Assembly: GCA_963169655.1 (NCBI GenBank)
Contig: CAUJCM010000003.1
Location: 31,741-95,740 of the forward strand
Origin: Patescibacteria group bacterium
Lineage (GTDB): Bacteria; Patescibacteriota; Gracilibacteria; UBA1369
DNA: 64,000 bases
Direction of reading: 5' to 3'
Shown here: piece by piece, positions 13,025-32,957 of the stretch
Numbering within the stretch: position 1 is the first letter of the stretch
Layout of the letters: every line of letters begins with the position of its first letter
The notes under the pieces: generated by a model
What the model was told of the DNA's origin: nothing
Database searches by the model: none
What the model saw: the letters and a program-made list of their open reading frames with translations, nothing else
Program-made: the position numbers and the translations under genes

Positions 13025-14164
13025 ATGACAAAACACCATAAAACCAGTGTATTTCTTGCAACAATTTTAACAATTTTAATACCTATTTCTATTGTCAATG
13101 CGTCATCTCTAGTAGTATCAAAAACAAAAAACTCAGATGACAGCAATAATCAAAATTGGTTCCGTTTTTTTGAAATACCTGGAACAAAAATAGAAGATTC
13201 AATAGTATTAATTAATACTAGTAAAGAAGTTCAAGACTTAAAAATATATGCTACTGATGCAACTTCTAATCAAGCAGGAAGCTTTACTCCAAAAATGTCT
13301 AATGAAGAACAAAAAGGCATTGGGGCTTGGACAATCCTTTCTCAAGATCATATAGTATTAAATCCAGGTGAACAAAAAGAAATAGATTTTATTATTAATA
13401 TTCCAAAAGATCTTCCACCTGGACAATATTTTGGCAGTATTATGAATGAAAACAGTCAATCAATAGAGAGCTGTCCAACAGAAAACCTCGTTGAAAATCA
13501 ATGCAAAAGCAATATTCACATTAAAACAAGAACTGGAAATAGAATTTATTTAAATATTCCAGGAGAAATTAAACAGGATATTAAATTAAACAGCTTCAAT
13601 TGGTCAAAAACAAATAATAATATCAATTTCAATTTTAGTTTTAGCAATAATGGAAATGTTGCATTTCAGCCAAAAGTAACGATCAATATTTATAATTCTT
13701 GGGGAAAGAAAATAGATAGTATTGAAGAAAATCTTGGTAAATCACTTCCTAACACTACGATCACTCCCATCATCAATTGGAATCCAAAAGGCCAATTTGG
13801 TAATTTAACAGCAAAAGCCAATATTATTTATTTACAAGAAAATTTAGGACAAATCGATAATTTACATGGATCTTCTTTAAGTGAAATAGCAAACTTAAAA
13901 TTTTATATTATTCCTTGGAATATAATTTTAGTATTACTATTCATTTTAATTAGCTTCTCTCTTGGCTTGGTTTACAGAAACTTATATATCAAAAATTTAA
14001 TAAATAACTCAATAATTTATACAGTAAAAGAAAATGATAATTTAATTGATATTGCAAAAAAACACCAAACCAAATGGCAGTTAATAGCAAAATTAAATAA
14101 AATCTCCCCTCCCTTTATATTAAAAACTAAGCAAAAAATAAAAATTCCACAAAACAAAAAATAA
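13025..14164 (+). CDS. DUF916/DUF3324-like (CscA-like) surface anchor with a C-terminal TM followed by a LysM domain
   Basis: Signal peptide. Motifs GAWTIL..VLNPGEQKEIDFIINIPKDLPPGQYFGS and RTGNRIYLNIPGE. TM IILVLLFILISFSLGLVY. LysM YTVKENDNLIDIAKKHQTKWQLIAKLNKI...KIKIP. Confidence 0.6.
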   Translation: MTKHHKTSVFLATILTILIPISIVNASSLVVSKTKNSDDSNNQNWFRFFEIPGTKIEDSIVLINTSKEVQDLKIYATDATSNQAGSFTPKMSNEEQKGIGAWTILSQDHIVLNPGEQKEIDFIINIPKDLPPGQYFGSIMNENSQSIESCPTENLVENQCKSNIHIKTRTGNRIYLNIPGEIKQDIKLNSFNWSKTNNNINFNFSFSNNGNVAFQPKVTINIYNSWGKKIDSIEENLGKSLPNTTITPIINWNPKGQFGNLTAKANIIYLQENLGQIDNLHGSSLSEIANLKFYIIPWNIILVLLFILISFSLGLVYRNLYIKNLINNSIIYTVKENDNLIDIAKKHQTKWQLIAKLNKISPPFILKTKQKIKIPQNKK

Positions 14165-14165
14165 T

Positions 14166-17100
14166 ATGACTAGTCAAAATAAAATATCAAAAATTATTTT
14201 AGGAGCAATCATAATAACCAGCACCTTAATTTCTGGAAGTATTTCATTAGCTGACGCAAACTTAATAAAAGATGCAAAAAATTTTTATGATAATAGTCCA
14301 GAAAAAATAAATAGTTTTACATTGCCATTTACAACAGAACCAATTGCAAGTGCTGTTGACACCACAGGAAATATGGCCTTTGTCTGGGCAGATAACACAG
14401 GTGCAATAGATAGTTGTAAATCCATATACTTTCAAATATATAATTACAATGGTATTCCAATTACAGGCCATGAAGAATTAACTGGAAGTTGTCATATTGA
14501 TAATTTATATAAAGATCCAAAAATAATATTTACTAAGAATGGACTAGCAATAACCTATTATTCTTATTTATATGATGGATTACAATCTTATCCAAACATC
14601 AATATACAATTTTATAATACAGATACTGACACAATAAGCGCCCCAATAATAATAAATGATTATACTATAAATGATTATAATGAAATAAAATCCCCACAAT
14701 TCGCGATAGAAAATGAGGATAAAAATATAATTGGTATAGTTTGGGTTGGTTGCCCAGACATAACCTGTACAGAAGAAAAAATAATGTATCAAAATATAAA
14801 TTTAGATGGGAATAAACCTAATCCTAACAATAAAGTCATTAGTGAAAATAGCACTAATTATGAAGTAGCCAACCCTAGAATTGCTGATAGTGGAATATTA
14901 TTTATGATTACATGGACTCAGTTTGATAATGCTGAGACAACAATCAATTCTAAAGCTATTAATGCTCATGATCCTGATAAAGTCACTAATGAAATAGAAA
15001 TAACTCAAAATAATTTTATATCAAACCCATCACGTTATGTTTTAAGAAGCGATATTGTTGGAAATAATATTTTTCCTCCTGCTAAATATTCAATTGAGAA
15101 TAATGAAGCAAAATGGCTAGACACCTTTTTTATCGTTTATGATGATTTAAGTAGTATAGATAATAGCAAAAGCATTTATCTTAAAAAGATATCATGTATT
15201 ACTACAATGTCTTTACTCAATGGACAGCCAAGCCATAATTGTTCAGTAGCCACAAAAAATTCTAAGGAGATTATAATTAGAATAAACACAACTACGGAAA
15301 ACAATATAATGCCAGCAATTGCAAAATCACAAAAACAATTATTCAAAGACGATCAAAATGATGGAAAATTAAGGTTAGACAATATTGCAAATACAATAAC
15401 TGTCACCTGGGTACAAGCAGATCTTTTAAAAGCGGAATTTCCTATTTATCATTTAATAGCTCAAAATTATGATAGCAATTTAAAAAAACTTGGAAATCAT
15501 TTTATGATTCATTCAGGTATTAATGACGTTAATACAACGTATACATTAAGTAAATTTGCACCAAACAATTTTTTAATAAATTTTAGAAGCCTAGTCGTAT
15601 GTCCAGATTCAAACTGGTCTTGCGACTATGTTGATGATATCAGAGGAGGATATAATAATTACAAAAACCAAGCAGAATTATATAATAATATTAATTTTAA
15701 AGTAGGAACAAATATTCCAGTAAATCCACCAACTAACCTAATACAACAATCACCACAAACAGCATTAAATAGCGATGGAAAATATGTAATTGTGTACACA
15801 CAATTAAATGACGATGATTCTTTTTCCTCCTTCTATACTCTATACGACAATTTTGGAAATAGTATTATAGCCAATCAACCCGTATCTAATACTTTAACAG
15901 GTGACCAATCATTTCCACGAGTAAAATTTTTTAATGAAAACAAGGATTCTTCTAATTATGGAAAATTTATTATTACATGGGAAGGAGAAGGTAGCGGTGA
16001 TAATGATGGTATTTTTTATAGAATATTCAAAGCAGATGGAACGCCTGATACTACAGAAACATTAATTAATACAAATACCAACCAAATACAATCAGGATAT
16101 GACTTAAGTGTTGGTGAATATGGTCAAATAGCAATCGTATATACAGAAAAAAATGTCGACCTTATAACAAATGATTTGTATCTTTATTATAATAATAATG
16201 GAACTATAATAAGAAAAAACATCGTAAATTCTTCAGAAATTTTAGTCACACCAAAATTTTCTCCTAAAATTGCACTAAATCCAAAAGCAGATGGAAGTAC
16301 AGGACTAGCAGGTCAAACAAAATTTGTTATAGGCTGGAATACTGAAGACATTGGTCACAATTTTTTTACATATTTTCAAGAAGGCTACCTACAATCTTCT
16401 TCAGTAATTAATTTATTGGGATCACCTTCACACATTGGTAACTTAATAAAAGATTTAGAAGGCGGATATAATGACCAAATAACAACAAAAATAAATACCG
16501 CAAATGACAATTTTTTTTACGGAGCTATTATATTTGATAATAATCAATATCTCGTCAAAGCTAAAATATTTAATTCAAATTATGTATTAGACATACCGAA
16601 TAAATCAACCCGAGCTAGTGAGCTATCCATAGATCCTGCAACTGGAAATATTGCTGTAATTGGAACAATCAGTAACACTTATAATAACCTATGGAACAAA
16701 AAAAATACAATACTTAGAGAAACAACAATTCTCAATCCTTTTTACCCTTTATATGGAGGAAGTGATGAAAAAAACAAAGAAATAATTATAGCTCATGATG
16801 ATTTAAGTATATATAGCAAAATATTAGATGTTAGTACCAGTTATTATGCCGCAATACTTAATAATATTATAGGAGAGTTCGCCCCATTTGATTTATTTAA
16901 GATTTTTATAAAAACTGATACTTTTGGAGTAATGCCTTCTCAACAATTATTCTTCACAAATTCTAATGACATAGATAATTTTCAAGAATACGATTTAATT
17001 CAAGGAAATTTTTCTGGTGCAAGTGGTACAGTTCTATATAAACATCAATCTGCTAATCCTGGTGAAAGTTTTCTAATTGTAGAACTAGACAATGGTAGTC

Positions 17101-18185
17101 CTTTTTTTGACAATATTGATACTATTACTAATCAAACTGATTTTGCCAATGTAGACAGCACAATTGAAGGATATATCCTATATTTTTATGAAGAAGGGTG
17201 GGATTCAAATAATCACAACAAAATATATACTCCAGGATTCGCAGAATCCGGAGAAATAGTTCAAATTATTTCAAGCTATCAAGTATTTATTAAAACAAAT
17301 GATGTATTTCCACCATTTGACCCTGTTGTAGTTTATGCAGGCGAAATAGCAAATCATAATGATGTAGCATTTTATCCAATAATAACCTTAAGTACATTAA
17401 GTTTCATAGAACCCGATGTATTCAATCAACTTGCTGAAACAACTCTTAAATGGCTAGAAGAAACAACTAAGCTATATCCATCAAAATATAATGATTATGG
17501 TCAACTCACTGCAACCACAAGTATAAGCTATAATACTAGTTCAGAAGATATTAATGAACAAAGAATAATAACTGCATTCAATTCTTATATACCGCCACTT
17601 AATATTAATCTGTTTCATCATCCAGATTATAATGGGGTATATCAACAAATTTTTGCTAATCCATATAATCTAGGAGAAAGTCAAAATTCATCACCAATAA
17701 CTACACAACAAATCAATCCAGGTGGAAAATATATTCAAGTTCCTGAATTAATTACATTTAATCAAAATTTAGAAAAACAACAAAGTTATAGCGTAAATTT
17801 TTATGATATAGATAATAACTGTATTACAATTACTGACCTCGACGGATCAGAATTTGATTTAACAGTTTCAATGACAAACTTAACAAATAATACAGACATT
17901 AATAATCCAAAAACAATTTCTAATAGCAATTTCGAAATAGAAAATAATGATGGAGTTAGAGATGAAATTACAATAAATCAAGCATTTTCAAATATAAATG
18001 ATGTATCTCTAGATCCTTCAACAAATATAAGTCAGCACGCAACACTCGATACTGTACAAACATTATTAAATAAAAATAATAAAAACACCGGTTCTTGGAA
18101 AATTTGTCCAAAATTAATATTTAATGTACCAGCAAGCGCTCCAATGGGAACAGCTAATGGGAGTTTAACATTTACTATAATATAA
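14166..18185 (+). CDS. giant secreted protein (1339 aa) with about 10 propeller-like repeats and a WxL-like C-terminal module
   Basis: Signal peptide. Recurrent blade motif (FVWADNTG..IYFQIYNYNG, IITWEGEGSGDNDGIFYRIFKADG and others). The C-terminus has YIQVPELITFNQ, CITITDLDGSEFDLTVSMTNL and GTANGSLTFTII. Confidence 0.6.
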   Translation: MTSQNKISKIILGAIIITSTLISGSISLADANLIKDAKNFYDNSPEKINSFTLPFTTEPIASAVDTTGNMAFVWADNTGAIDSCKSIYFQIYNYNGIPITGHEELTGSCHIDNLYKDPKIIFTKNGLAITYYSYLYDGLQSYPNINIQFYNTDTDTISAPIIINDYTINDYNEIKSPQFAIENEDKNIIGIVWVGCPDITCTEEKIMYQNINLDGNKPNPNNKVISENSTNYEVANPRIADSGILFMITWTQFDNAETTINSKAINAHDPDKVTNEIEITQNNFISNPSRYVLRSDIVGNNIFPPAKYSIENNEAKWLDTFFIVYDDLSSIDNSKSIYLKKISCITTMSLLNGQPSHNCSVATKNSKEIIIRINTTTENNIMPAIAKSQKQLFKDDQNDGKLRLDNIANTITVTWVQADLLKAEFPIYHLIAQNYDSNLKKLGNHFMIHSGINDVNTTYTLSKFAPNNFLINFRSLVVCPDSNWSCDYVDDIRGGYNNYKNQAELYNNINFKVGTNIPVNPPTNLIQQSPQTALNSDGKYVIVYTQLNDDDSFSSFYTLYDNFGNSIIANQPVSNTLTGDQSFPRVKFFNENKDSSNYGKFIITWEGEGSGDNDGIFYRIFKADGTPDTTETLINTNTNQIQSGYDLSVGEYGQIAIVYTEKNVDLITNDLYLYYNNNGTIIRKNIVNSSEILVTPKFSPKIALNPKADGSTGLAGQTKFVIGWNTEDIGHNFFTYFQEGYLQSSSVINLLGSPSHIGNLIKDLEGGYNDQITTKINTANDNFFYGAIIFDNNQYLVKAKIFNSNYVLDIPNKSTRASELSIDPATGNIAVIGTISNTYNNLWNKKNTILRETTILNPFYPLYGGSDEKNKEIIIAHDDLSIYSKILDVSTSYYAAILNNIIGEFAPFDLFKIFIKTDTFGVMPSQQLFFTNSNDIDNFQEYDLIQGNFSGASGTVLYKHQSANPGESFLIVELDNGSPFFDNIDTITNQTDFANVDSTIEGYILYFYEEGWDSNNHNKIYTPGFAESGEIVQIISSYQVFIKTNDVFPPFDPVVVYAGEIANHNDVAFYPIITLSTLSFIEPDVFNQLAETTLKWLEETTKLYPSKYNDYGQLTATTSISYNTSSEDINEQRIITAFNSYIPPLNINLFHHPDYNGVYQQIFANPYNLGESQNSSPITTQQINPGGKYIQVPELITFNQNLEKQQSYSVNFYDIDNNCITITDLDGSEFDLTVSMTNLTNNTDINNPKTISNSNFEIENNDGVRDEITINQAFSNINDVSLDPSTNISQHATLDTVQTLLNKNNKNTGSWKICPKLIFNVPASAPMGTANGSLTFTII

Positions 18186-18802
18186 TGAATAAAACAACAA
18201 TATTCATCATAGGTTTACTAAATTTAATCTGGGTAAGTACCAGCACTGCCAACTCCCCTAGTTTCACTTCATATCCAGAAGATATATCAAATGGAAATTG
18301 GATAATAAAAAATGTTAATCCAGGCAAAAATTATTATGAGAAACTAATTGTTAAAAATTTAGAAAATGAAACAATACAATTAAATTTAAAATTTAATGAA
18401 TTTATCGAAAACAACAAAAATATCCAATTATTAGAAAATCAAAAATATTTAAATATTGGCAATTGGATAAGCCCAACAAGTCAAACAATACAATTATTAC
18501 CTTATGAAACAAAAAGAATTAGTTTTGAAATAAAAATACCAAAACAAACCTTAGAAAAACAATATCAAGGTGCATTTTTAATCTCTAAACAATTATCACA
18601 AAATAATTCATTTAATATTAATACCAGAATAGGAAATAGAATTTATTTAAATGTTACCAACAACAACCTATTAGAAAATAACATTTTTAATCTTCCAATC
18701 AGCAAAACTAATTTATTATTTATATTTATAAGTATTCTTATGCTCGGATATTCTCTATTTCACTCAAAACGATTAATCAAAAATAAAAATTATGAAAGAT
18801 AA
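18185..18802 (+). CDS. short DUF916-like surface anchor (signal peptide, beta domain, C-terminal TM)
   Basis: NIGNWISP..LLPYETKRISFEIKIPKQ..YQGAFLIS, then RIGNRIYLNV, then TM LLFIFISILMLGYSLF. TAATG overlap with the upstream gene. Confidence 0.55.
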   Translation: MNKTTIFIIGLLNLIWVSTSTANSPSFTSYPEDISNGNWIIKNVNPGKNYYEKLIVKNLENETIQLNLKFNEFIENNKNIQLLENQKYLNIGNWISPTSQTIQLLPYETKRISFEIKIPKQTLEKQYQGAFLISKQLSQNNSFNINTRIGNRIYLNVTNNNLLENNIFNLPISKTNLLFIFISILMLGYSLFHSKRLIKNKNYER

Positions 18803-19823
18803 AATTATTAAAAACATAACAACAATATTAGGAGTATGTATCTTATTTATAAACACAACTCCTATATTTGCTCAAATATTAGAAATTCAAATCATTGGAG
18901 CTGGTTATAAAGTCTTAACACCAACACAATTAAATTTTCCAATAATCAATACAGGGACTGAAAATACAACGACAAATATTAAAACTAGAAATGTCTTTCT
19001 AGAAAAAGACAAATCAAATCAAAATAGATATGGATTTCAAGTAATAGATGAGAATGGAGGAAATCCATTTGATGTACTAATAACAACTGATGAATTTAAA
19101 ATATCCGAAACAACTAAAACCATTCAAGGAAGCAACAATAAAATTCTAAAAGTAGCTTCTACAGAATTTTTTGAAATTGGAAATAAAATTTTAATTCCAA
19201 GTGTTTTTAACAATACAGAGTTTACAATTAATACAATAAACCACCCTGATACAATAGAAATTGCAGAAAATGAGGATTTATCTATTGTTCCAGATAATAC
19301 AAACATTATAAAAATTATAAACTGCAATGATAGTCCAAAAAAATGTATATCATTGAATAATTTTTCAATTAAAAACAGCGACGGAATAAATCCTGAATTT
19401 AATACATTAAATGGAAATGAAAATGATTTACAATTACATTCATCAACAGATTCATTTATTACATTTAAAGGAAAAGCAATAACAACAACAGGATCTATTA
19501 ATCAAATACTGAATGTAGAAAATACAAACAATCTATTTGTAGGAGAAGAAATTATTTTTCCTAGTGATAGTGGGGTAAATCCACTCACCAACAAAATAAC
19601 AGAAATATCCTCCCCTACCTCATTTAAAGTTGAAACAAGTTTTATAGATCCGCCAACTGACGGGATTGAATTATATTCAAAAAACATTCGCACACTGACC
19701 CTTGCAAATAGTACGGGTGAAGAACCTGGTATTTTCGAAATATATCCTGTTTTACAGTTAGTTGTTCCAGCAGGACAAAAAAATGGATTATATCAAACAA
19801 CATTAAATCTTACTATACTCTAA
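18792..19823 (+). CDS. secreted protein with WxL-like motifs
   Basis: Signal peptide. LTPTQLNFPIINTG, GFQVIDENGGNPFDVLITTDEF, C-terminal GLYQTTLNLTIL. 11-nt overlap with the upstream gene. Confidence 0.5.
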   Translation: MKDKIIKNITTILGVCILFINTTPIFAQILEIQIIGAGYKVLTPTQLNFPIINTGTENTTTNIKTRNVFLEKDKSNQNRYGFQVIDENGGNPFDVLITTDEFKISETTKTIQGSNNKILKVASTEFFEIGNKILIPSVFNNTEFTINTINHPDTIEIAENEDLSIVPDNTNIIKIINCNDSPKKCISLNNFSIKNSDGINPEFNTLNGNENDLQLHSSTDSFITFKGKAITTTGSINQILNVENTNNLFVGEEIIFPSDSGVNPLTNKITEISSPTSFKVETSFIDPPTDGIELYSKNIRTLTLANSTGEEPGIFEIYPVLQLVVPAGQKNGLYQTTLNLTIL

Positions 19824-21918: not shown

Positions 21919-22490
21919 TTTTTTACAGCAATTAAAAGTCCGTCACCGATCTTTAAAATATCACTATCAAATCTCTCATCACTTTGCATATTAATAACAA
22001 AGTTTTCCAAGGCAAATTGATGAGACTGAATATTATCGGCAATAACTAAACCTCCTTTTTTAATAAATGGATAACATTGATTCAAAATATCTTGATATTG
22101 TTTCTTGGTAGCATCTAAAAATAACAAATCAAAATTCCCCTCTCTTATGTTAGAATTTATATCAAAGATTTCTGGAGCGTGCCCAAAAACTTGTGTAATA
22201 ATTTGATTTAAATCAAATGTCAAAAAGTTTTTTTCTGCTAATTTAAATCTAGTAATATTTGATTCAACAGTCCAAAGATATCCTATTTTATTGTCTTTCA
22301 AAGCCTGAGCCATCCAAATAGTTGAATATCCATTCGAAGTTCCAATTTCTAAAACTCTTTGACATCCAGACAGCCGAATAAAAAGATACAACATTTGAGC
22401 AACTTCTCTTGGAATATTCCAATAATGTTTATTAGTTTTTTCTAAACTCAATATTTTATCTTCAAGCTCCCTACTAAAAATATTCATCAT
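21915..22490 (-). CDS. class I SAM-dependent O-methyltransferase (caffeoyl-CoA OMT-like, family 3)
   Basis: SAM motif VLEIGTSNGYSTIWMA, LFLDATKKQY, GGLVIADN. 191 aa, convergent 4-nt overlap with the 19825 gene. Confidence 0.75.
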   Translation of the reverse strand: MMNIFSRELEDKILSLEKTNKHYWNIPREVAQMLYLFIRLSGCQRVLEIGTSNGYSTIWMAQALKDNKIGYLWTVESNITRFKLAEKNFLTFDLNQIITQVFGHAPEIFDINSNIREGNFDLLFLDATKKQYQDILNQCYPFIKKGGLVIADNIQSHQFALENFVINMQSDERFDSDILKIGDGLLIAVKN

Positions 22491-26232: not shown

Positions 26233-27495
26233 ATGATTAAAGATAAAATAACAAATCTTCAAAATAAATTATTTACAGCTATCACTGTATTATTAGCTTT
26301 AATAACATTTATTCCAATTAGTTTTGCTCAATCCATAAATAATAATTCCATCTTATTCAATTCAAACTCACAAAAATCTTTAAATTCCTCATTTACAACT
26401 TCAGAAAATAATATTCTTACAAACGATTCAAATACAAATCCATCAAACGAAACTAATCAAAAAAATTTAGTCCAATTAAGAATAATCCCTTCAATTAGTG
26501 ACAGTAATAGTTCAGCTATACTCACCTACTCTCTCAAACCAAATAAAAACACAGAAGACATTTTGACTATTCATAATGAATCTGATTACAACAGCTACAC
26601 ATTTAATTTATATGCAGTTGATGCAGCCCAAAATAAAAGAGGCGATATTTATTATAAATTAGCAAATCAAGAACAAAACGCAATTGGTTCATGGACAAAT
26701 TTTAATAAAAAAGGATTAAAAATTTTTCCTAATCAAACTTTAAGAATCCCATATTCAATTCATATTCCTCAAAAAATTACTCCTGGAACTTATCAAGGAG
26801 GATTCGTTGTAGAACTTCAAAATTCTTCTAATGAGGATAATCAAATCAAAGTAGTTAGCAGAATTATCACACCTTTTAGAGTAACCATTCCAGGAAGAAA
26901 ATTTATTGAATTAGATTTTAAAAATTTTGAATATAATAAAAATCCAAAAGAGCCTTTATTTAATATTTCTCTATCTAATTCAGGAAATGTAATTTTAAAA
27001 GCAGATATCGATCTTGAAATAAAAGGCACATTATTTAAAGAACCATACAAAGCTTCTTCAAATGAAAATATCTTACTTCCAGATTCTTCAATAAATAAAA
27101 ATATCTCTACCCAAAAACTACCTTTTCTAGGAAAATATCAAGCTTCAGCAATAGTTAATCTTTATCAATTCGATACAAATAAAAATGAATATATATACTA
27201 TCAAACACTTCAAAAAGACATCGAATTTACCATTATCCCCTACTCTTTCTTGATATGTTTATTAGTTCTAGCAATATTTATCATTTTTATTGCAGTAAAA
27301 AGACAAAAATGTCTTAAAAAAATTAAAGAAAATTCATTTACACATATTGTGGCTAAAGGAGAAACCTTAACTTCAATAGCAAATCTTTACAAAATTAATT
27401 GGAGGACTATAGTTAGGTTAAATAAATTTAAAAAACCGTATACTTTAAGAGTAGGAAAAAAATTAACAATTTTTGTTAAAAATAAAAAGAAATAA
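26233..27495 (+). CDS. DUF916/DUF3324-like surface anchor with TM followed by LysM (paralog of 13025 and 30401)
   Basis: Signal peptide. GSWTNF..IFPNQTLRIPYSIHIPQKITPGTYQGG, RVTIPGR. TM FLICLLVLAIFIIFIAV followed by KRQKCLKKIK. LysM HIVAKGETLTSIANLYKINWRTIVRLNKF. Confidence 0.6.
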   Translation: MIKDKITNLQNKLFTAITVLLALITFIPISFAQSINNNSILFNSNSQKSLNSSFTTSENNILTNDSNTNPSNETNQKNLVQLRIIPSISDSNSSAILTYSLKPNKNTEDILTIHNESDYNSYTFNLYAVDAAQNKRGDIYYKLANQEQNAIGSWTNFNKKGLKIFPNQTLRIPYSIHIPQKITPGTYQGGFVVELQNSSNEDNQIKVVSRIITPFRVTIPGRKFIELDFKNFEYNKNPKEPLFNISLSNSGNVILKADIDLEIKGTLFKEPYKASSNENILLPDSSINKNISTQKLPFLGKYQASAIVNLYQFDTNKNEYIYYQTLQKDIEFTIIPYSFLICLLVLAIFIIFIAVKRQKCLKKIKENSFTHIVAKGETLTSIANLYKINWRTIVRLNKFKKPYTLRVGKKLTIFVKNKKK

Positions 27496-27497
27496 AA

Positions 27498-28253
27498 ATG
27501 AAAAAATTATTCTCAATCTCAGTATTAGTTTTAGTAAGTTTAAATTTATTTATAGCTACTGTTTTCGCTACACCAGAAAATTTTGATGGTGAGCAGGAAA
27601 TTGAGTGCAATGATAGTGGATCTTTTATTATTAAATCTGCACCTGAAACTATTGAATTTTATGAAAGAACAACAAACTTTTATAATGAAGATAATTCCAA
27701 TATCATTGCAACAAAAGATAATGGAAATTATGACCCAATGATAGTTTTTGAAGATACCAGAGGTTTTGATCCTAGCGGAAATAAAGAATGTGGAAAGGGT
27801 TATATTGTCTCAGTAGTAGCTTCAGATGGAATTACTAATTATGCAGATATTAACAATAAAAATACTTCAGATTATTACAGGATATATTTAGCAACTGGTG
27901 AATTTGGTGGAGATGGAAATATGCTTGAAGACGTCAATATTGGAACTTCGATTCCTGATGAATTAATGAGAGACATAGTAGAATTTTATGATGAAAATGA
28001 TGTTCAAAATAAATCAATTAAAACAGCAATTAACTTATTTGAAACTCAAGAAGCTTTTTATGGAGATCTAGGATTAATTTTAAATTTTTATGATCAAGAT
28101 CAAGGAGATGATGCAGAGTGGTCTACACTTAAAACTTTACATAATGATTTAGAAAAGAAAGTAAGTGGAACTGTCACAAATAATTATCAAGGTCCAATTG
28201 CACCAGGTACTTATACAGGAACAATCACTTTCTCTATCACTCAGAAAAGTTAA
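27498..28253 (+). CDS. small secreted WxL-like protein (Trp-less FxL variant)
   Basis: Signal peptide IATVFA. IIKSAPETIEFYERTTNF, VFEDTRGFD..GKGYIVSVVAS, C-terminal PGTYTGTITFSITQKS. Confidence 0.6.
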   Translation: MKKLFSISVLVLVSLNLFIATVFATPENFDGEQEIECNDSGSFIIKSAPETIEFYERTTNFYNEDNSNIIATKDNGNYDPMIVFEDTRGFDPSGNKECGKGYIVSVVASDGITNYADINNKNTSDYYRIYLATGEFGGDGNMLEDVNIGTSIPDELMRDIVEFYDENDVQNKSIKTAINLFETQEAFYGDLGLILNFYDQDQGDDAEWSTLKTLHNDLEKKVSGTVTNNYQGPIAPGTYTGTITFSITQKS

Positions 28254-28327
28254 GACACACACTTGACAGAACACTATAAAATATAGTAATATAATTTGAA
28301 GCTTTATAATTTAACCAAAAAACAAAT

Positions 28328-28990
28328 ATGAAAAAGCTCACAACAATTTTAGCCTTAACGGCAGTAACAGCAAATCTTGGTATCGCTACTGTGTTTGCAC
28401 AACCTCAAGACGAAGCTATCTCAGGAACCCAAAGCATTGATTGCGATAATACTGGAGATATTACTCTTGTAGTAGATGGTAATAAAGATATTACTTTTTA
28501 CCCAAGAACTGTAAATTTTAAAGACGCAACACAAGCTTATGCATCAGCTTCTAAGAACGCCAATAAATATATAAAAATCCAAGACACAAGAGGATATGAT
28601 TCAACATGTGGATTTGGAGCTACTTTAAGTATACAATCTAGCGGACTAAATCATCCTGATTCAGGAGATATTATAGATTTAATGACAGGAGATTATACTA
28701 GGAGTAATTTTGTAATTGAAAGTGGCAGTATTCCAGACAGTACTAATTTTTATAATGATATTGTAGGAAATGTAAAAGCTGGTACAGAAACAGATATTAA
28801 GAATTCGGTTCAAATATTTGAAACTAATCAGGCTTTTAGCGGATCAATTAAAATAATTTATAATCCAAGTACAGATGATGGTAGTGATTACGATGATGTA
28901 TTAGTTGCAGCTAAAAGACCATCTTCAGTAATAGCACAAGGAACCTATACAGGAACAATTACTTTTTCTTTGGAGAAAAAAAATAGTTAA
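28328..28990 (+). CDS. small secreted WxL-like protein (paralog of 27498)
   Basis: Signal peptide IATVFA. ITLVVDGNKDITFYPRTVNF, IKIQDTRGYDSTCGFGATLSIQS, C-terminal QGTYTGTITFSLEKKNS. Confidence 0.6.
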   Translation: MKKLTTILALTAVTANLGIATVFAQPQDEAISGTQSIDCDNTGDITLVVDGNKDITFYPRTVNFKDATQAYASASKNANKYIKIQDTRGYDSTCGFGATLSIQSSGLNHPDSGDIIDLMTGDYTRSNFVIESGSIPDSTNFYNDIVGNVKAGTETDIKNSVQIFETNQAFSGSIKIIYNPSTDDGSDYDDVLVAAKRPSSVIAQGTYTGTITFSLEKKNS

Positions 28991-29011
28991 TTTTTAAATA
29001 TCATCAATCAA

Positions 29012-29040
29012 AGAGCCACAATTGTGGCTCTTTTTCTTTT
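29012..29040 (+). terminator. rho-independent terminator after the 28328 gene
   Basis: Stem AGAGCCAC / GTGGCTCT with loop AATT, followed by TTTTCTTTT. Confidence 0.75.
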
Positions 29041-29041
29041 T

Positions 29042-29083
29042 ATTCCCCTCTTGAGGGGTGTCAGCCACAGGCTGACGGGGTGG
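29042..29083 (+). repeat. two-hairpin repeat element, copy 1
   Basis: ATTCCCCTCTTGAGGGGTG-TCAGCCACAGGCTGA-CGGGGTGG. Hairpin 1 is CCCCTC/GAGGGG and hairpin 2 is TCAGCC/GGCTGA. Confidence 0.85.
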
Positions 29084-29104
29084 ATCAAATCTTTAGATAA
29101 AAAG

Positions 29105-29620
29105 TTAATGAAGAAGTTTTTGAAGCTCTTTTTCTCTTATTTCTATATTTTCAAGAAGATCTTGATGTACATACTCTATATTTTGGCAAACTTCACTATT
29201 TCTATACCTCAAAACTTTTAACCCTAAATCATTTAAAGCCACTTCTCTTTTTTTATCGTATTGCTCTTTTAAATCATGGCTAGATCCATCTATTTCAATC
29301 ACTAAACCTAGTCTTGCAATAAAAAAGTCTACAATAAAATTACCAATAACAGTTTGCCTATCCATATCATAATTTTTAATTATGCCTTTATTTTTAAAAA
29401 TGTTCCAAAAGATTACTTCTGAAAGTATTGACTGTTTTCGTAGTTTTCTAGCTTTTTTTGTGAGCTGTTTATTCTTAGGCAAGTTCCAATATGGAAAAAG
29501 AGATCTTTTTTGCCAGTCGAAACAAGCCACCCCGGCAAATTCTTCGAATTTGCCACCCCTCAAGAGGGGAATTTTAATTTTACCAATACTATACTGCTTT
29601 TTACTCATAATTCGGTACAT
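29105..29620 (-). CDS. DUF559 (Vsr/restriction-endonuclease-like) domain protein
   Basis: LTKKARKLRKQSILSEVIFWN, FIVDFF, LVIEIDGSSHD and LKVLRYRNSEV are typical of DUF559. Residues 17-33 (IPLLRGGKFEEFAGVAC) are encoded by a copy of the repeat element. Confidence 0.75.
   Translation of the reverse strand: MYRIMSKKQYSIGKIKIPLLRGGKFEEFAGVACFDWQKRSLFPYWNLPKNKQLTKKARKLRKQSILSEVIFWNIFKNKGIIKNYDMDRQTVIGNFIVDFFIARLGLVIEIDGSSHDLKEQYDKKREVALNDLGLKVLRYRNSEVCQNIEYVHQDLLENIEIREKELQKLLH
29526..29572 (-). repeat. two-hairpin repeat element, copy 2 (inverted, inside the DUF559 coding sequence)
   Basis: The reverse complement reads ATTCCCCTCTTGAGGGGTG-GCAAATTCGAAGAATTTGC-CGGGGTGGC. The flanks match the other copies, while the second stem has a different sequence that is still self-complementary. 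Confidence 0.85.
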
Positions 29621-29970
29621 ACTAAGTATATTTATAAAAGTCGCTTTTAAATTCTGGATAAAATTTTAATAAAGTTTGGATGGTGGAATCAATAATCCAC
29701 CCAATCAAAGTAATATTCCAATTGTATAAAAACAAAAAGATTATTATACTAAAAATGTCGTTAACCCTGAATACAATGAAAAATAACGCTATTAAAATAT
29801 CTTCAAAAAAAGAAATTAAAAAATCAGATAAACTTGAGAAGAACATACAGAAATACTTTGACTGGGTTGATAAAACATATATTCCTAAAGGAAAAAAGAT
29901 AGCATTTTAAAAATTTTAAAGAAAGTTAGAGGGTAAAAGAAGTCAGCAATCAAAGCCTATCGAGGAAACA

Positions 29971-30013
29971 ATTCCCCTCTTGAAGAGCGTTAGCCGGAGA
30001 CTTTCGGGGTGGC
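29971..30013 (+). repeat. two-hairpin repeat element, copy 3 (degenerate)
   Basis: ATTCCCCTCTTGAAGAGCGTTAGCCGGAGACTTTCGGGGTGGC. The flanks are conserved but both stems are damaged. Confidence 0.7.
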
Positions 30014-30116
30014 TCTTTCGTTTGAAAAAAGCTAAAATCCCCAAAATTTGACGGGGTGTTCTTTATGAAGCTTAGGGAAACAAAGAGAAAGATCATCGCG
30101 TAGAAAGAAAACATCA

Positions 30117-30160
30117 ATTCCCCTCTTGAGGGGTGGCAGCCACAGGCTGACGGGGTGGCT
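30117..30160 (+). repeat. two-hairpin repeat element, copy 4
   Basis: ATTCCCCTCTTGAGGGGTGGCAGCCACAGGCTGACGGGGTGGCT, nearly identical to copy 1. Confidence 0.85.
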
Positions 30161-30280
30161 GAATTGTTAGCAATGTGAATTTAGTAAAGATACATCCGGA
30201 TAAACAAAAAAGATAAAGAACACAGAAAATAAACACAAAATATAGTTCATTTACCTTTGTTAAAAAAATTAAATTAAATC

Positions 30281-30300
30281 ATTCCCCTCAATAGGAGAAT
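30281..30300 (+). repeat. partial copy of the repeat's first hairpin
   Basis: ATTCCCCTCAATAGGAGAAT shares ATTCCCCTC and is itself a near-palindrome. Confidence 0.4.
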
Positions 30301-30400
30301 TAAAGCAAGCCACTTCGTAGCAAAGTATTTAAAATAACCACTTTATCTTCTTTACAAAAAATGTTAAAATTATAATAGTTAAATAAAAATAAAAAACAAA

Positions 30401-31525
30401 ATGAATCGCAATAAAACAAAAACATTTTCACTATTTCTAATTATTTCATTACTACTTCCTTTTGAAACTATTTTTGCAAAAAGTTTTGCAGTAAAGGTTG
30501 ATCCAAATGACAATAAAAAAAGTTCATATTCTTTTGAGTACCAAGAAGGAAAAGTTCTTTCAGATCAAATTACAGTTACAAATTTGGATAAAGTTGAAGA
30601 ATCTACCTATCAAGTTTATGGGGTAGATGGTATCACCAATTCTCTGGGTCAATCTGTTTTTAAAAGTTTAACTGACAAACAAACAAATCTAGGTTCTTGG
30701 ATTGAATTTGAAGAACCTACTTTCACTTTAAAACCTGAAGAAAGTAAAACTGTCACTTTCAAAATTAATATTCCAGAAAATGTAATTCCAGGTTACTACA
30801 CAGGTGGGATTAGTGTTCAAGAAATAAATAATCAAGAAGTTAAAAGTAAAGAAGAAAAAAAACAATCTTTTGGAGCCAAAGTTTCTACAAGAATTATCCA
30901 TAGAGTATATGTAAATATTCCAGGTGAAATTACAATAAATGGAGATATCAATAGTTTTAAATTTCAATCTGTAAATAAAAGTAATTTTTTCACTTTCAAT
31001 GCAGAAAATACTGGTAATACAATTTTAAAAGCTGAAGGTAAAATTACTATAACTGGTGGAATTACTCAAAAAGAAGCTTTTGAAATTCCAGTAAATATAG
31101 CTTATTTAAATGTAGGTGAAAAAATAGAAAATAAAATATCTATTCCAAAAGAATTTAATTATTATGGAAATTTCCAAGCAAATTTAGATTTAAAAATGTA
31201 TAGTTTTGATCCATTTAATAATATAACTACTGATTTTAAAGAAGTTCATTTATCTACAACCTTCAAATTAATTCCTTGGGATCAAATTTTCTTAGCTTTA
31301 AAAATTCTTGCACTCTTAATCATTTTAATTACTGCATATATCACTAATAAAATTCTTTACCTCAAAAAATGTGAACCATATACAGTTCAAGAAGGAGACA
31401 CAGTTAATAGTCTTGCTAAAAAACACAATATGTCTTGGAGGAAACTCGCTAAAATCAACAAATTGAAAGCACCTTATGAACTCACTCCAGGTCAAAGTAT
31501 TTTAGTAAAAAAAATTACTAAATAA
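30401..31525 (+). CDS. DUF916/DUF3324-like surface anchor with TM followed by LysM (third paralog)
   Basis: Signal peptide. GSWIEFEEPTFTLKPEESKTVTFKINIPENVIPGYYTGG, RVYVNIPGE. TM ALKILALLIILITAYI followed by NKILYLKK. LysM YTVQEGDTVNSLAKKHNMSWRKLAKINKL. Confidence 0.6.
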   Translation: MNRNKTKTFSLFLIISLLLPFETIFAKSFAVKVDPNDNKKSSYSFEYQEGKVLSDQITVTNLDKVEESTYQVYGVDGITNSLGQSVFKSLTDKQTNLGSWIEFEEPTFTLKPEESKTVTFKINIPENVIPGYYTGGISVQEINNQEVKSKEEKKQSFGAKVSTRIIHRVYVNIPGEITINGDINSFKFQSVNKSNFFTFNAENTGNTILKAEGKITITGGITQKEAFEIPVNIAYLNVGEKIENKISIPKEFNYYGNFQANLDLKMYSFDPFNNITTDFKEVHLSTTFKLIPWDQIFLALKILALLIILITAYITNKILYLKKCEPYTVQEGDTVNSLAKKHNMSWRKLAKINKLKAPYELTPGQSILVKKITK

Positions 31526-32250
31526 TGTCAAAAATTAATAAAAAATTACTATCTTCATTTATTTTAGCTTGTAATATCTTAATTGCTAGTAATTTAGCTA
31601 ATGCAGTTGATGTTAGTGGCTCTCTTGAAATCACAGGTTGTAGTACAAATTGTTTAACTTTAACTGTCCCAAATAATCTAAGCTTACATAACAGCCAATT
31701 TTTAGATAATTCAAATCAAAATATTTATCTTTACGGAAATTATAACCTTGGAGAAGGTATTAAAATTAACAATGTAATGATGAGCGACACTGGATTTAGC
31801 TTATCTGTAAAAAGTAGCAATTTAATAAGTGTAGAAGATAGTAATTATAAATTACCTTACTCTGAAATTGGTATTTTAACATTTAATAATTCCAATACAG
31901 AATCAATTGATATGGTAAGAAATAATAATTCTATTCCAATTCAATCTGAAATTGACCCCGTAGTAAAAGGTGAAACTACAGAACCTTTTAACTACAACAA
32001 ATTACTAGACAATATTGAAGATCAAATTGATATAACAGATTACTACACTTATTTTTCAGGAGCTAATCCAAATTTAAGTGATGATATAGCAATCATCAAT
32101 CAAACTCCTCAAGACGATAATAGTAAAGGCTCATTTGAAATGGGGCTTTCTTTAATTTTCAAAATACCACAAAATTCAATCGACAATGGACAGCTAATTG
32201 AAAGTGATTATAATGGAGGCATAACATTTACCTTAATCCAATATCCATAA
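31525..32250 (+). CDS. small secreted WxL-like protein
   Basis: Signal peptide. CLTLTVPNNLSLHNSQF, VMMSDTGFSLSVKSSNL, C-terminal DYNGGITFTLIQYP. TAATG overlap with the upstream gene. Confidence 0.5.
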   Translation: MSKINKKLLSSFILACNILIASNLANAVDVSGSLEITGCSTNCLTLTVPNNLSLHNSQFLDNSNQNIYLYGNYNLGEGIKINNVMMSDTGFSLSVKSSNLISVEDSNYKLPYSEIGILTFNNSNTESIDMVRNNNSIPIQSEIDPVVKGETTEPFNYNKLLDNIEDQIDITDYYTYFSGANPNLSDDIAIINQTPQDDNSKGSFEMGLSLIFKIPQNSIDNGQLIESDYNGGITFTLIQYP

Positions 32251-32957
32251 TGAAAACAAAAAATATTTTAAAAATAATATTAATCAATTTATTAATATTT
32301 TCTTTCGCTAATTTTTCTTTTGCAGCTGAAAAAGAAAATAACAGTCAAACAGCTCCGGAAAAAATGGAACAAACCGGATTTTCAGCAAGACCAGCTTTTC
32401 CAAATATTGAAAACTCAGGTTCTTTTACCTTTGAAGCAAGACCAGGAGAAACAGCAAGTGATATTTTAAAAATTTCAAATTTTAATAATTATCCAATCAC
32501 AGTTTTTGTTTATCCAACTGAAAACGAAGAAGAATTAAATAGCCAAGGAAATATTTCTTATAAAACATTTGGAAAAGAAATGACAGGAGTAGCAACTTGG
32601 TTTGAACTCGAAAAAGAAGAATTAGAAATGGAGCCAAAATCAGACCAAAATATTAAATTTTCAATCCACATCCCAGAAGATGCAGAAATGAAAGATTATT
32701 ATGGTGCCTTATCAGCTGAAGTTCGTGGCAAAGCTCCAGAAGGAGGAGGAGTTAGTGTAAATTATCGCTTTATTATTAAAGCAAATATTAAAGTAACCGA
32801 TAACCCAAGAGTAATTGAAAAAATTCCACCTACTCCCCTATTTGCTCCAGCTCAACTTTATTTATATGGATCAATCGCACTTTTTGTAATAATTGTTCTT
32901 TATTTTATTAGTTCAGCAATCATCAATAAAAAGAAAGGTAAAACTTCTAAAAAATAA
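32250..32957 (+). CDS. short DUF916-like surface anchor (signal peptide, beta domain, C-terminal TM)
   Basis: ATWFELEKEELEMEPKSDQNIKFSIHIPEDAEMKDYYGALSAE. TM LYLYGSIALFVIIVLYFI followed by a basic tail. TAATG overlap with the upstream gene. Confidence 0.55.
   Translation: MKTKNILKIILINLLIFSFANFSFAAEKENNSQTAPEKMEQTGFSARPAFPNIENSGSFTFEARPGETASDILKISNFNNYPITVFVYPTENEEELNSQGNISYKTFGKEMTGVATWFELEKEELEMEPKSDQNIKFSIHIPEDAEMKDYYGALSAEVRGKAPEGGGVSVNYRFIIKANIKVTDNPRVIEKIPPTPLFAPAQLYLYGSIALFVIIVLYFISSAIINKKKGKTSKK

Follow-up and report, generated by a model that had tools for sequence, protein, structure and literature searches.

The 20-kb block at positions 13,025 to 32,957 of the window (the whole 64,000-nt stretch of DNA that was analyzed) is best explained, with a probability that we put at roughly 70%, as three adjacent, divergent WxL-type (Csc-type) clusters of cell-surface proteins in a CPR-related host. 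The initial annotation had regarded the system as undescribed; we judge it instead to be a real, divergent variant of the known WxL/WxLIP system, which anchors proteins to the wall in lactic acid bacteria; its function here we infer. The host, kin to Candidatus Peribacteria/Gracilibacteria (CPR), is an uncultivated, ultra-small, low-GC organism (25–31% GC in the window) with the standard genetic code.

Layout of the block and its flanks

The block consists of three adjacent sets of cell-surface proteins (modules 1, 2 and 3), and its proteins are named below by the first coordinate of their genes. Of 14 ORFs, 12 are on the plus strand and two on the minus strand (21915–22490 and 29105–29620). 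A Kyte-Doolittle scan revealed a signal-like hydrophobic N-terminal segment in all but two of the 12 plus-strand proteins; the two, 18185 and 31525, were slightly under the cut-off, and their signal peptides were judged by eye. The earlier description of 12 of the 14 genes as plus-strand and secreted was borne out in this way, with coordinates, strands and lengths in agreement. So was the tight packing: junctions are overlaps or gaps of at most 15 nt, the sole exception being 28253/28328 (74 nt). The motifs quoted in that description were all found in the translations. The secreted proteins comprise WxLIP-like (class 1) and WxL-like (class 2) members, with the following features.

Module 1 and the gene after it
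13025–14164, plus strand: WxLIP-like protein, 379 aa, with signal peptide, PGBD, HBD-like second Ig domain, TM helix 298–316 and LysM (PF06030 31.2 bits; LysM E 1e-11; pI 9.2)
14166–18185, plus strand: large secreted protein, 1339 aa, passenger plus C-terminal WxL-like module (..SEFDLTVS.. / GSLTFTII; moderate orthologue-profile evidence; no Pfam match; pI 4.5)
18185–18802, plus strand: short WxLIP-like protein, 205 aa, PGBD and TM only (PF06030 22.2 bits; phmmer E 1e-6 to 1e-8; short profile 98.7%)
18792–19823, plus strand: acidic secreted protein, 343 aa, the weakest class 2 member (partial hhalign matches only)
19825–21918, plus strand: natural fusion, 697 aa, WxLIP-like in its N-half and WxL-like in its C-half, with two hydrophobic helices and their basic loop in between (hhalign 99.1%/97.3% for the N-half, 78.8% for the C-half)
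21915–22490, minus strand: O-methyltransferase gene between modules 1 and 2 (PF01596 E 2.6e-21)

Module 2 and the gene after it
22591–26217, plus strand: large secreted protein, 1208 aa, C-terminal WxL-like module, terminus GTYTTTLTLDF (profile 90.9%)
26233–27495, plus strand: WxLIP-like protein, 420 aa, TM helix 337–355, then LysM (PF06030 32.4 bits; LysM E 4.6e-13)
27498–28253, plus strand: small WxL-like protein, 251 aa, paralogue of 28328 (phmmer E 1e-20; member of the family from the exhaustive search)
28328–28990, plus strand: small WxL-like protein, 220 aa, signal peptide and domain only (PF13731 16.4 bits; family profile 64.6%)
29010–29033, plus strand: intrinsic-terminator-like hairpin ending module 2 (10-bp stem with 5 GC pairs, then a T-run)
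29105–29620, minus strand: DUF559 endonuclease-like gene between GC-rich repeats of 52 nt (PF04480 E 4.8e-27)

Module 3 and the downstream flank
30401–31525, plus strand: WxLIP-like protein, 374 aa, TM helix 296–314, then LysM (PF06030 42.6 bits, E 7e-11; LysM E 1.5e-12)
31525–32250, plus strand: small WxL-like protein, 241 aa (..DTGFSLSV.. / DYNGGITFTL; profile 72%)
32250–32957, plus strand: short WxLIP-like protein, 235 aa, PGBD and TM helix 207–225 (PF06030 28.0 bits)
32981–34384, plus strand: Wzy_C (O-antigen-ligase-like) membrane protein (PF04932 E 1.5e-20)
34365–36225, minus strand: 435-aa protein of unknown family and an ECF-type sigma factor (Sigma70_r2/r4 matches for 35674–36225)

The two minus-strand genes were assessed by their distribution in related loci. 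The O-methyltransferase gene occupies the same position in two of them (L006 and L007), is absent in L004 and probably stands outside the surface-protein system. The DUF559 gene is absent in the relatives that cover the junction of modules 2 and 3, and is an insertion outside the system. Among the flanking genes, Wzy_C adjoins the block in every relative reaching that far, and the pair of the 435-aa protein and the ECF sigma factor lies beside the block in five (L001, L004, L005, L008 and L009); this pair is a possible regulator.

Class 1 proteins as WxLIP homologues

By sequence comparison, class 1 proteins are homologues of WxLIP (DUF916/DUF3324). Four of them (13025, 26233, 30401 and 32250) exceeded the 27.3-bit gathering cut-off of PF06030 (PGBD, DUF916), and 18185, which fell under it, was joined to the rest through its phmmer and hhalign matches. 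The five stand-alone proteins were mutually significant in phmmer (E 1e-6 to 1e-37), and the N-half of 19825 matched class 1 at 99.1% in hhalign. Against a profile of 11 Firmicutes WxLIPs, hhalign probabilities were 99.5% for the long forms (E 8e-23), 98.7% for the short forms and 97.3% for the N-half of 19825. In the long forms, the second domain aligned with the DUF3324/HBD region of these WxLIPs (86.7%, P 4.4e-6, 84 columns), and PF11797 (HBD) gave no match in class 1 even at E ≤ 1. The DUF916 assignment proposed initially was confirmed; the DUF3324 assignment is probable from the HBD-region alignment and finds no backing in the Pfam search. The short forms, 18185 and 32250, lack the HBD-like domain.

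The hydropathy scan showed the arrangement expected of a WxLIP, a signal peptide plus a single C-terminal TM helix, with the C-terminal TM segment present in all five stand-alone proteins. In the long forms, a LysM domain of some 45 aa following this helix takes the place of the short tail; it is predicted to lie on the cytoplasmic side, and our model leaves it unexplained. The isoelectric points of four of the five stand-alone proteins are 8.9–9.6, and that of 32250 is 5.3. A class 1 query also retrieved unannotated relatives from Embleya and Nonomuraea records. As WxL proteins are about 91% from Firmicutes (PMC9772566), a restriction of WxL loci to low-GC Gram-positives would be too strong a statement.

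The C-terminal modules of class 2

Class 2 proteins most likely carry a divergent WxL domain, as judged from profile matches with controls, a weak Pfam match, C-terminal placement and gene context. The best score against PF13731 (WxL; gathering cut-off 25 bits) was that of 28328, at 16.4 bits (E 0.0095). Residues 57–216 aligned to profile positions 57–211 of 214, and WxL was the only Pfam family that spanned essentially the whole domain, although below threshold. PF13731 gave no match in the other six class 2 proteins or nine homologues, nor in any of 21 C-terminal modules, taken from the window and its relatives, that were scanned one by one. In phmmer, only 27498 and 28328 found each other (E 1e-20). 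Most pairs were undetected by phmmer or a single family HMM, and the remaining members connect solely via profile–profile comparison, for example 31525 with the 28328 family (46%, P 2e-4). Of the two recurring classes announced in the initial annotation, class 1 is thus well supported, whereas homology within class 2 is much weaker than implied.

Orthologue alignments of class 2, of only 3–6 sequences each, were compared by hhalign with a profile built from 20 proteins of Firmicutes WxL clusters, of which 14 carry a WxL annotation. Five of the six families (six of the seven proteins) gave long, collinear matches (P 1e-6 to 3e-4) with moderate probabilities (42–91%). The 22591 type ranked first (90.9%, P 1.1e-6, 158 columns); its profile includes the C-termini of the giant proteins of relatives, which on their own reached 87.3% (P 3.8e-6). 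It was followed by the C-half of 19825 (78.8%, P 1.7e-5, 100 columns), the 31525 type (72%, P 3e-5, 111–116 columns), the 27498/28328 family (64.6%, P 6e-5) and, marginally, the 14166 type (42–63%, score 32.4–36.5, 150 columns, P 7e-5 to 3e-4). Profile homology was not found for 18792 (6%, score 25.4). The identification of class 2 as WxL therefore holds as profile similarity in six of seven proteins, but it fails at the Pfam cut-off for all seven and does not convincingly include 18792.

Sixty-four decoys of the same composition (6 reversed alignments and 58 passenger tiles) scored at most 16.8, and 10 cross-family controls at most 29.7. The top control, the C-half of 19825 against WxLIP, was a spurious PGTY-type strand match between unrelated Ig-like domains. 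Given this control, 18792 (25.4) is unproven and the 14166 type (32–36) barely above it. Parts of 18792 aligned with canonical WxL (residues ~29–105, P 0.016; last 34 columns, P 0.006) without exceeding the best cross-family control (29.7), and the protein is linked with the module of 14166 (P 4e-4). It may contain a WxL-like domain interrupted by an insert of about 200 aa.

The module is at the extreme C-terminus in all seven window proteins, whose isoelectric points are 4.0–4.6. An exhaustive profile search returned 65 relatives. They are either small (about 200–260 aa; 171–275 aa among the full-length matches) or large (560–2931 aa), always with the module C-terminal and, in full-length matches, aligned up to the last residues, and canonical WxL proteins show the same dichotomy (PMC9772566). 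The passenger regions of the window proteins, called propeller-like in the initial annotation, had no sequence matches in Pfam, NCBIfam or the PDB.

In canonical WxL domains, motif 1 has a hydrophobic residue at −10, Asp at −8 and Arg at −6 upstream of Trp-x-Leu, and motif 2 lies in the terminal strand (PMC9772566). In 22591, motif 1 (IIDERCSGDSFSL) carries I, D and R at exactly these positions, followed by F-S-L with Phe for Trp. Class 2 does not show the two Trp-x-Leu motifs by which a WxL domain is recognized: of the 14 motif positions, 13 have another residue than Trp. Motif 1 has F, Y or A in its place, motif 2 F, L or I. The loss of the terminal Trp from all seven copies, as originally reported, was seen in the translations (F in 14166, 27498, 28328 and 31525; L in 18792 and 22591; I in 19825). 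The label "Trp-less" is too broad, since hhalign aligned motif 1 of 19825, NPWSIYLSI, to canonical GWxLxV with its Trp kept, the only one at a motif position in class 2. Trp is likewise missing from one motif or from both in annotated WxL proteins of Firmicutes (Listeria pFV2, Paenibacillus and a small Bacillus cereus protein), so the literal Trp-x-Leu motif is not universal across the family.

We also considered whether class 1 alone is part of the known system. Class 2 modules would then be an unrelated, beta-rich, CPR-specific domain for anchoring or sorting, recruited independently beside DUF916 genes, and their likeness to WxL would be limited to generic beta-strand motifs (..D.RG.., PGTY.TxT..). 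This is improbable in our view. It would account for the sub-threshold Pfam scores of every class 2 protein, but Firmicutes cluster proteins also miss the cut-off (no match for the large L. johnsonii protein, whose annotation is hypothetical; 20.8 bits for the Paenibacillus RCC1 protein). The spurious Ig-like match at 29.7 shows that a PGTY-type strand can mislead; however, the matches to canonical WxL extend over 100–158 columns, are collinear and keep both motifs in register, the −10/−8/−6 spacing of 22591 is exactly canonical, and the composition-matched decoys score far lower. Two large module-bearing proteins remote from any DUF916 gene (L023 and L024) would also fit independent recruitment, yet orphan WxL proteins are known in Firmicutes (PMC10599100). 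The fold search of the 28328 model returned no WxL structure, which likewise favors an unrelated domain. Structures of the Firmicutes system have been solved (PDB 9i25 and 9i1y); 9i25 was outside the top 50 Foldseek matches from a fold library (to April 2026) that may or may not include it. With the 28328 family profile as query, 9i25_A, a WxL domain protein, ranked second of 177,635 PDB sequences (E 0.62). The WxL reading is further supported by 19825, where a single polypeptide combines the two classes.

The confident AF2 model of 28328 is all-beta (pLDDT 84.9), and its top Foldseek matches in the PDB were donor-strand-complemented chaperone–usher pilins (Csu, including CsuA/B, CfaB, FimG, Caf1 and SafA; E 5e-3 to 0.2, probability ≤ 0.99). 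By this fold-level likeness, small class 2 proteins could be pilus- or fibre-like subunits assembled by donor-strand exchange, with class 1 as a membrane chaperone or anchor and not a wall-binding platform. The AlphaFold2-predicted insertion of a DUF916 beta-hairpin strand into WxL, beside the WxL N-terminus (PMC10599100), is formally strand complementation and mechanistically analogous to that of pilins. However, TM-scores were low (0.23–0.49, among them 0.37/0.49) and rmsd was 7–15 Å; sequence similarity to pilins, usher or periplasmic chaperone homologues in the block, and any sign of an N-terminal extension usable as a donor strand were all absent. Moreover, the same module on large proteins fits anchoring better than polymerization, and the block would encode a wall-linked surface system, unlike outer-membrane pili. 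We therefore hold a pilus very unlikely, and the likeness is one of analogy, not membership.

That the motifs are a by-product of an AT-rich, Asn/Ile/Thr-rich composition, with no two-class system behind them, might be suspected from the low GC content and the many class 2 pairs invisible to phmmer or a single HMM, but it is refuted by the E-values of class 1 paralogues, by orthologous loci at 40–49% GC that keep genes, order and motifs unchanged, by the reversed and passenger-tile controls, which do not reproduce the matches, and by a regex scan of window ORFs of at least 90 aa, which found the terminal motif only in block ORFs, in six of seven class 2 proteins (the 31525 terminus was missed by the pattern).

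Conservation, proposed function and comparison with known systems

The gene pairing was sought in related genomes as proposed, and the locus is kept in six independent related loci, the synteny partners being genomes labelled Peribacteria/Gracilibacteria. The fusion of the 19825 type recurs in two relative loci (L004 and L006). In syntenic relatives, the large partner reaches 9,474–11,652 aa; these giant proteins with the terminal module are putative attachment proteins.

A WxL cluster has been defined as a minimum of one WxLIP plus a pair of WxL within four genes (PMC10599100; Hassan et al. 2023). Provided that class 2 is WxL, the modules agree with this definition and with the three-module layout first described: module 1 contains two WxLIP-like and two WxL-like proteins besides the fusion; in module 2, three WxL-like proteins accompany a single WxLIP-like one; and module 3 has two WxLIP-like proteins and one WxL-like protein, which calls for counting the small proteins of module 2, within four genes.

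In the proposed mechanism, basic class 1 homologues would be held in the membrane by their C-terminal helix and display the PGBD outside, and long forms would additionally display the HBD-like domain. The helical hairpin of 19825 is predicted to place both of its halves outside the cell. Acidic class 2 proteins would be secreted, ending in a divergent WxL domain with an aromatic or aliphatic residue for most Trp. By analogy with the Firmicutes system, this domain would be expected to be captured and stabilized by the WxLIP PGBD at the peptidoglycan surface, for which the 19825 fusion is indirect support. Both the small proteins, with the domain alone, and the large ones, with a passenger as well, would then be kept non-covalently on the wall. 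The large passengers may project outward and bind other cells or substrates.

Firmicutes WxL clusters include csc of Lactiplantibacillus plantarum, loci A–C of Enterococcus faecium and the elr operon of E. faecalis, with a minimal unit of one small and one large WxL protein plus a WxLIP (DUF916-DUF3324-TM) protein (PMC1534035, PMC9772566, PMC10599100). Like them, the block has operon-like sets of secreted proteins in several paralogous clusters per genome. The membrane-anchored protein has the PGBD(+HBD)+TM architecture and is usually basic, and the domain-only small proteins are acidic; acidic small WxL and basic WxLIP proteins are likewise found in L. plantarum and Listeria (PMC9772566, PMC10599100). 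Large proteins have an N-terminal passenger and the domain at the extreme C-terminus, and the core of two motifs, hydrophobic-x-D-x-R...aromatic-x-L and a terminal T-aromatic-x-L strand, is shared.

The differences from Firmicutes begin with the host, which is related to Peribacteria/Gracilibacteria and not to Bacilli. The block's modules lie under the Pfam threshold with nearly all Trp replaced, and its long WxLIP-like proteins bear the extra LysM. Short PGBD+TM-only forms, rare in Firmicutes, are standard partners here, and a WxLIP-like and a WxL-like half are fused via a helical hairpin. The block has a Wzy_C gene and that of an ECF sigma factor as linked neighbors, and the large partners of relatives attain giant size. 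An LPXTG (CscD-type) protein occurs in most canonical clusters, though not obligatorily (PMC9772566), and no LPXTG-type C-terminal signal was found among block ORFs.

The plasmid-borne locus of Paenibacillus urinalis, consisting of DUF916, a small WxL and a large RCC1-WxL protein, and the pFV2 locus of Listeria monocytogenes offer further parallels. Each is one plasmid cluster, unlike the block. Their small proteins are annotated as WxL, that of Paenibacillus passing the Pfam cut-off (30.1 bits), and the Paenibacillus DUF916 protein has no LysM, unlike the long forms of the block. As in the block, Trp is already lost, with terminal strands FTYT/FTFT in Paenibacillus, and with motif 1 GYDV and the terminus TVTVAV in Listeria. 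The large Paenibacillus partner bears a beta-propeller (RCC1) passenger and is also under the Pfam WxL cut-off, and the Paenibacillus WxL family bridges well to the module of the 22591 type (69.9%, P 4e-5).

Organization and conservation of the block

At a minimum length of 150 aa, 14 ORFs were called in the block (13025-32957), 12 of them on the plus strand; genes are named here by their start positions. Within each run, neighboring genes overlap or are separated by no more than 15 nt, with the sole exception of a 74-nt gap before 28328, and a strong terminator-like hairpin was found 3' of 28328. The ORF coordinates and strands bear out the dense plus-strand packing reported in the initial annotation, and the motifs quoted there were all present in the translations. 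In a hydropathy scan, all plus-strand proteins but two showed a signal-like segment at the N-terminus (10 of 12; 18185 and 31525 fell slightly under the cut-off), and all five stand-alone proteins of the WxLIP-like class 1 showed a C-terminal transmembrane (TM) segment; class 2 comprises the secreted proteins with a C-terminal WxL-like module. The GC content of the window is 25-36%, and in DNA this rich in AT a promoter scan was uninformative, returning 130 sites where 137 were expected. As the long genes contain no in-frame TGA and several ORFs terminate at TGA, the standard genetic code was adopted, and the alternative code with UGA as Gly, as in Gracilibacteria, was rejected.

The gene pairing was sought in related genomes, and the whole locus proved to be syntenic in six independent related loci. 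Two related loci, from MAGs labelled Candidatus Peribacteria and Candidatus Gracilibacteria, have GC contents of 41% and 49%, which argues that conservation of the locus is not an effect of composition. The taxonomy of the window was inferred from these MAG loci alone. The block is a real, conserved feature. Among the neighbors common to the related loci are the Wzy_C gene downstream, a gene for a protein of 390-473 aa and an ECF sigma factor gene. In the window, the Wzy_C (O-antigen-ligase-like) gene, a convergent gene for a 435-aa protein without a family assignment and the ECF sigma factor gene occupy 32981-36225, 3' of the block. This order is the same in every relative extending that far, which suggests functional or regulatory coupling.

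The following elements lie between the modules:
21915-22490, minus strand: family 3 O-methyltransferase gene between modules 1 and 2, overlapping the end of 19825 by 4 nt
29105-29620, minus strand: gene for a DUF559 protein (Vsr-like endonuclease fold), between modules 2 and 3
29042-29093, 29971-30022 and 30117-30168: GC-rich repeat of about 52 nt, with an inverted copy at 29551-29573

The closest relative (L006/L007) shares the O-methyltransferase gene, which another related locus, L004, lacks. The DUF559 gene is missing at this position in the related loci covering the junction; hence, together with the repeats, it is probably a recent insertion. The repeat (ATTCCCCTCTTGAGGGGTG.CAGCC...GGGGTGG) is present in three to five copies, some of them inverted, across the 1.4 kb that separate modules 2 and 3; a copy lies within the 5' end of the DUF559 gene. 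The repeat resembles a small mobile element or a REP-like sequence.

Two large genes diverge from the block (7397-10336 and 10412-12886, both minus strand). Of their products, that of 979 aa combines a signal peptide with five bacterial TSP3 repeats, a Big_13 domain and a C-terminal hydrophobic stretch; for that of 824 aa, neither a family match nor an obvious signal peptide was seen. A tmRNA gene was found at 40525-40937 on the minus strand (Rfam, 124 bits; tag peptide AVERLAKAIEAEQAPALAFA).

Class 1 proteins are homologs of WxLIP

Class 1 proteins were compared with PF06030 (WxLIP_PGBD, formerly DUF916) at its gathering cut-off. Four exceeded it (13025, 31.2 bits; 26233, 32.4; 30401, 42.6; 32250, 28.0), and 18185 was slightly under it (22.2 bits). 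The five stand-alone proteins retrieved each other by phmmer (E 1e-6 to 1e-37). Profiles built from the window proteins and their orthologs in related loci were then aligned with a profile of 11 annotated Firmicutes WxLIPs: the long forms (13025, 26233 and 30401) scored 99.5% (E 8e-23, 243 columns), the short forms (18185 and 32250) 98.7%, and the N-terminal 300 aa of 19825 97.3%. The proposal that class 1 consists of DUF916 proteins was thus confirmed, and these matches establish homology to WxLIP. DUF3324 had also been proposed; PF11797 itself matched no class 1 protein, but the second domain of the long forms, taken on its own, gave a match of 86.7% (P 4.4e-6) to the HBD (DUF3324) region. 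Class 1 genes in related contigs had already been labelled PF06030 by automatic annotation.

The long forms also matched LysM (E 1e-11 to 5e-13). On these matches, the predicted domain order of the long forms is signal peptide, PGBD, HBD-like domain, TM, LysM, and that of the short forms is signal peptide, PGBD, TM. The LysM tails, all distal to the single TM helix, are as follows:
13985-14164: C-terminus of 13025
27340-27495: C-terminus of 26233
31376-31525: C-terminus of 30401

Assuming cleavage of the N-terminal signal peptide, LysM, which follows a single C-terminal TM helix, is predicted to lie on the cytoplasmic side, an odd location for a module that binds peptidoglycan. This architecture is kept in all related loci.

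A class 1 query also retrieved unannotated relatives in two actinobacterial records of the plasmid collection, one at E 1e-8 and 91% coverage, the other at E 5e-5, indicating that DUF916-like proteins reach beyond Firmicutes and CPR:
NZ_CP108785.1 (Embleya, 5.7 Mb), 1716578-1717381: class 1 relative
NZ_LT559118.1 (Nonomuraea, 11.9 Mb), 1269087-1269614: class 1 relative

Class 2 modules and the WxL domain

Single-sequence and family searches gave little for class 2. Only 27498 and 28328 were related by sequence (phmmer, E 1e-20); phmmer, an HMM of the small-protein alignment A1 and a 47-sequence family HMM revealed no link to the other five class 2 proteins or to canonical WxL proteins. The WxL assignment in the initial annotation was not recovered with the Pfam profile, as no class 2 protein reached the cut-off: the best, 28328, obtained 16.4 bits against 25, although residues 57-216 aligned nearly full-length with profile positions 57-211 of 214. 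PF13731 scanned one by one against the other class 2 proteins, homologs and orthologous modules gave no match, nor did a Pfam scan link weak representative matches to WxL, including P0060, which ends in ...GTITWTLS. An exhaustive profile search over 1.84 billion representatives yielded only 65 relatives. These were either small (about 200-260 aa) or large (560-2931 aa), and the module stood at the extreme C-terminus in every full-length match, typically ending in ...GTYxGTITFTL. Canonical WxL proteins show the same split into small and large forms, with the domain always C-terminal (PMC9772566).

As a direct test of homology, ortholog profiles of the class 2 C-terminal modules were compared with a canonical profile. 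As a small WxL query from L. johnsonii returned only near-identical sequences (at least 93% among the matches listed) and added no diversity, canonical diversity was taken from annotated Firmicutes plasmid clusters of Lactobacillus, Paenibacillus, Bacillus, Enterococcus, Listeria, Pediococcus and Lactococcus; tblastn with a small WxL protein against plasmids recovered the query alone. The profile comprised 20 small and large cluster proteins, 14 of them annotated as WxL.

Table. Class 2 C-terminal modules against the canonical WxL profile
22591 type: 90.9%, P 1.1e-6, 158 columns
19825 C-half: 78.8%, P 1.7e-5, 100 columns
31525 type: 72%, P 3e-5, 111 columns
27498/28328 family: 64.6%, P 6e-5, 109 columns
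14166 type: 42-63%, P 7e-5 to 3e-4, 150 columns
18792 type: 6%, P 6e-3, 34 columns

Both WxL motifs were in register in the alignments, for example IIDERCSGDSFSLTL on VTDTRLNATGWNLAV and GTYTTTLTLDF on GKYTSNLTWNL. Decoys (six reversed alignments and 58 passenger tiles of 230 columns from the same proteins) all scored at most 16.8, and ten cross-family controls (class 1 against WxL, class 2 against WxLIP) at most 29.7. Accordingly, five of the six orthogroups are clear of the null, 14166 marginally so; 18792 fails to be established. Among the 177,635 sequences of the PDB set, the family profile gave second rank to a "WxL domain surface protein", 9i25 chain A, at a non-significant E of 0.62; the alignment spanned the C-terminal motif. 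Taken together, class 2 most likely carries a divergent WxL domain, and we put the overall probability of homology at about 0.7. The description of the modules as Trp-less holds in that Trp is replaced almost everywhere; it does not hold for 19825, which keeps the Trp of motif 1, nor as a unique feature, since one or both motifs are without Trp in annotated WxL proteins of B. cereus, Paenibacillus and the Listeria plasmid pFV2.

An AF2 model from 10 sequences (pLDDT 48) was set aside; the model of 28328 kept, from a 31-sequence alignment, was all-beta and of high confidence (pLDDT 84.9). In a PDB fold search its top matches, all at low TM-scores, were donor-strand-complemented chaperone-usher pilins; 9i25, if the fold library includes it, ranked outside the top 50. 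In the small-protein family of 28328 (28328-28990; alignments A1 and A2), Cys39 is invariant and another Cys, at position 94 in 28328, is common in the expanded loop of motif 1; the two suggest a disulfide tying the N-terminal strand to motif 1. The passenger domains of class 2 in the window had no match in Pfam, NCBIfam or PDB sequences and hence gave no sequence support for the propeller-like passengers of the initial annotation; P0015, a related large protein, showed faint Kelch matches.

The gene 19825 (19825-21918) encodes a WxLIP-like N-half and a WxL-like C-half joined by two hydrophobic helices that flank a basic loop, and the fusion is kept in two relatives (L004 and L006). This layout is what interaction of the two classes outside the cell would predict, and as a natural fusion it lends Rosetta-stone support to the proposed physical interaction. 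Class 2 is acidic (pI 4.0-4.6) and class 1 basic in four of the five stand-alone proteins (pI 8.9-9.6; 32250, pI 5.3), the same charge pattern as small WxL proteins and WxLIPs of L. plantarum and Listeria (PMC9772566, PMC10599100).

Giant proteins and comparison with Firmicutes clusters

Four relatives encode a giant protein at the position of 22591, and those called in full, three in number, measure 9,474-11,652 aa. On their own, the C-terminal 230 aa of the giants scored 87.3% against the canonical WxL profile (P 3.8e-6). The same C-terminal module also occurs on "orphan" large proteins far from any WxLIP/DUF916 gene, the 2550-aa one showing faint Kelch/beta-propeller matches and a TIG match:
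L001 1-8761, L008 1-8763, L009 1-8754 and L005 17-8722: giant-protein genes in related loci
L023 6001-13653: orphan, 2550 aa
L024 651-4847: orphan, 1398 aa

Peregrinibacteria encode many very large extracellular proteins of unassigned function, for which attachment to other cells has been suggested (PMC4736985, PMC11573180). The importance of the locus rests mainly on its tie to these proteins: together with its relatives, it supplies giant proteins with a recognizable C-terminal module and a dedicated membrane partner, and turns how giant CPR surface proteins stay on the cell into a testable question. Given probable class 2 homology, the WxL/WxLIP system would reach well past Bacilli, with its name-giving Trp residues dispensable. 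A profile from class 2 sequences would annotate proteins that are mostly nameless or, where named at source, "hypothetical protein" in current databases. We consider it possible, though doubtful, that WxL/WxLIP is a general device by which CPR of the Peregrinibacteria/Gracilibacteria type tether giant extracellular proteins, as long as 11,652 aa, to the wall for attaching to other cells; it would then be an ancient surface display common to CPR and Firmicutes rather than a Lactobacillales speciality, in which the inner-side LysM and the always-adjacent ECF sigma pair might couple surface occupancy to gene expression.

Among the papers listed in literature searches, the recent ones on WxL/DUF916 essentially all concern Firmicutes, and none combined WxL with a CPR term. 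The system described here is probably homologous to the Firmicutes WxL/Csc clusters and would work like them, anchoring and adhesion being functions inferred from those clusters. Each module fits the published WxL-cluster definition, although module 3 contributes a single WxL-like protein of its own (PMC10599100). The loss of Trp is likewise shared with the Listeria, Paenibacillus and B. cereus proteins and not peculiar to the block. In contrast to the Firmicutes clusters, the host lineage is CPR, no LPXTG protein was found among the block ORFs, and the modules fall under the Pfam cut-off with Trp replaced almost throughout. Furthermore, LysM follows the TM helix in the long WxLIP-like proteins, short partners with PGBD alone are routine, both classes are joined in one gene (19825), genes for Wzy_C and an ECF sigma factor are linked to the block, and the passengers can be giant.
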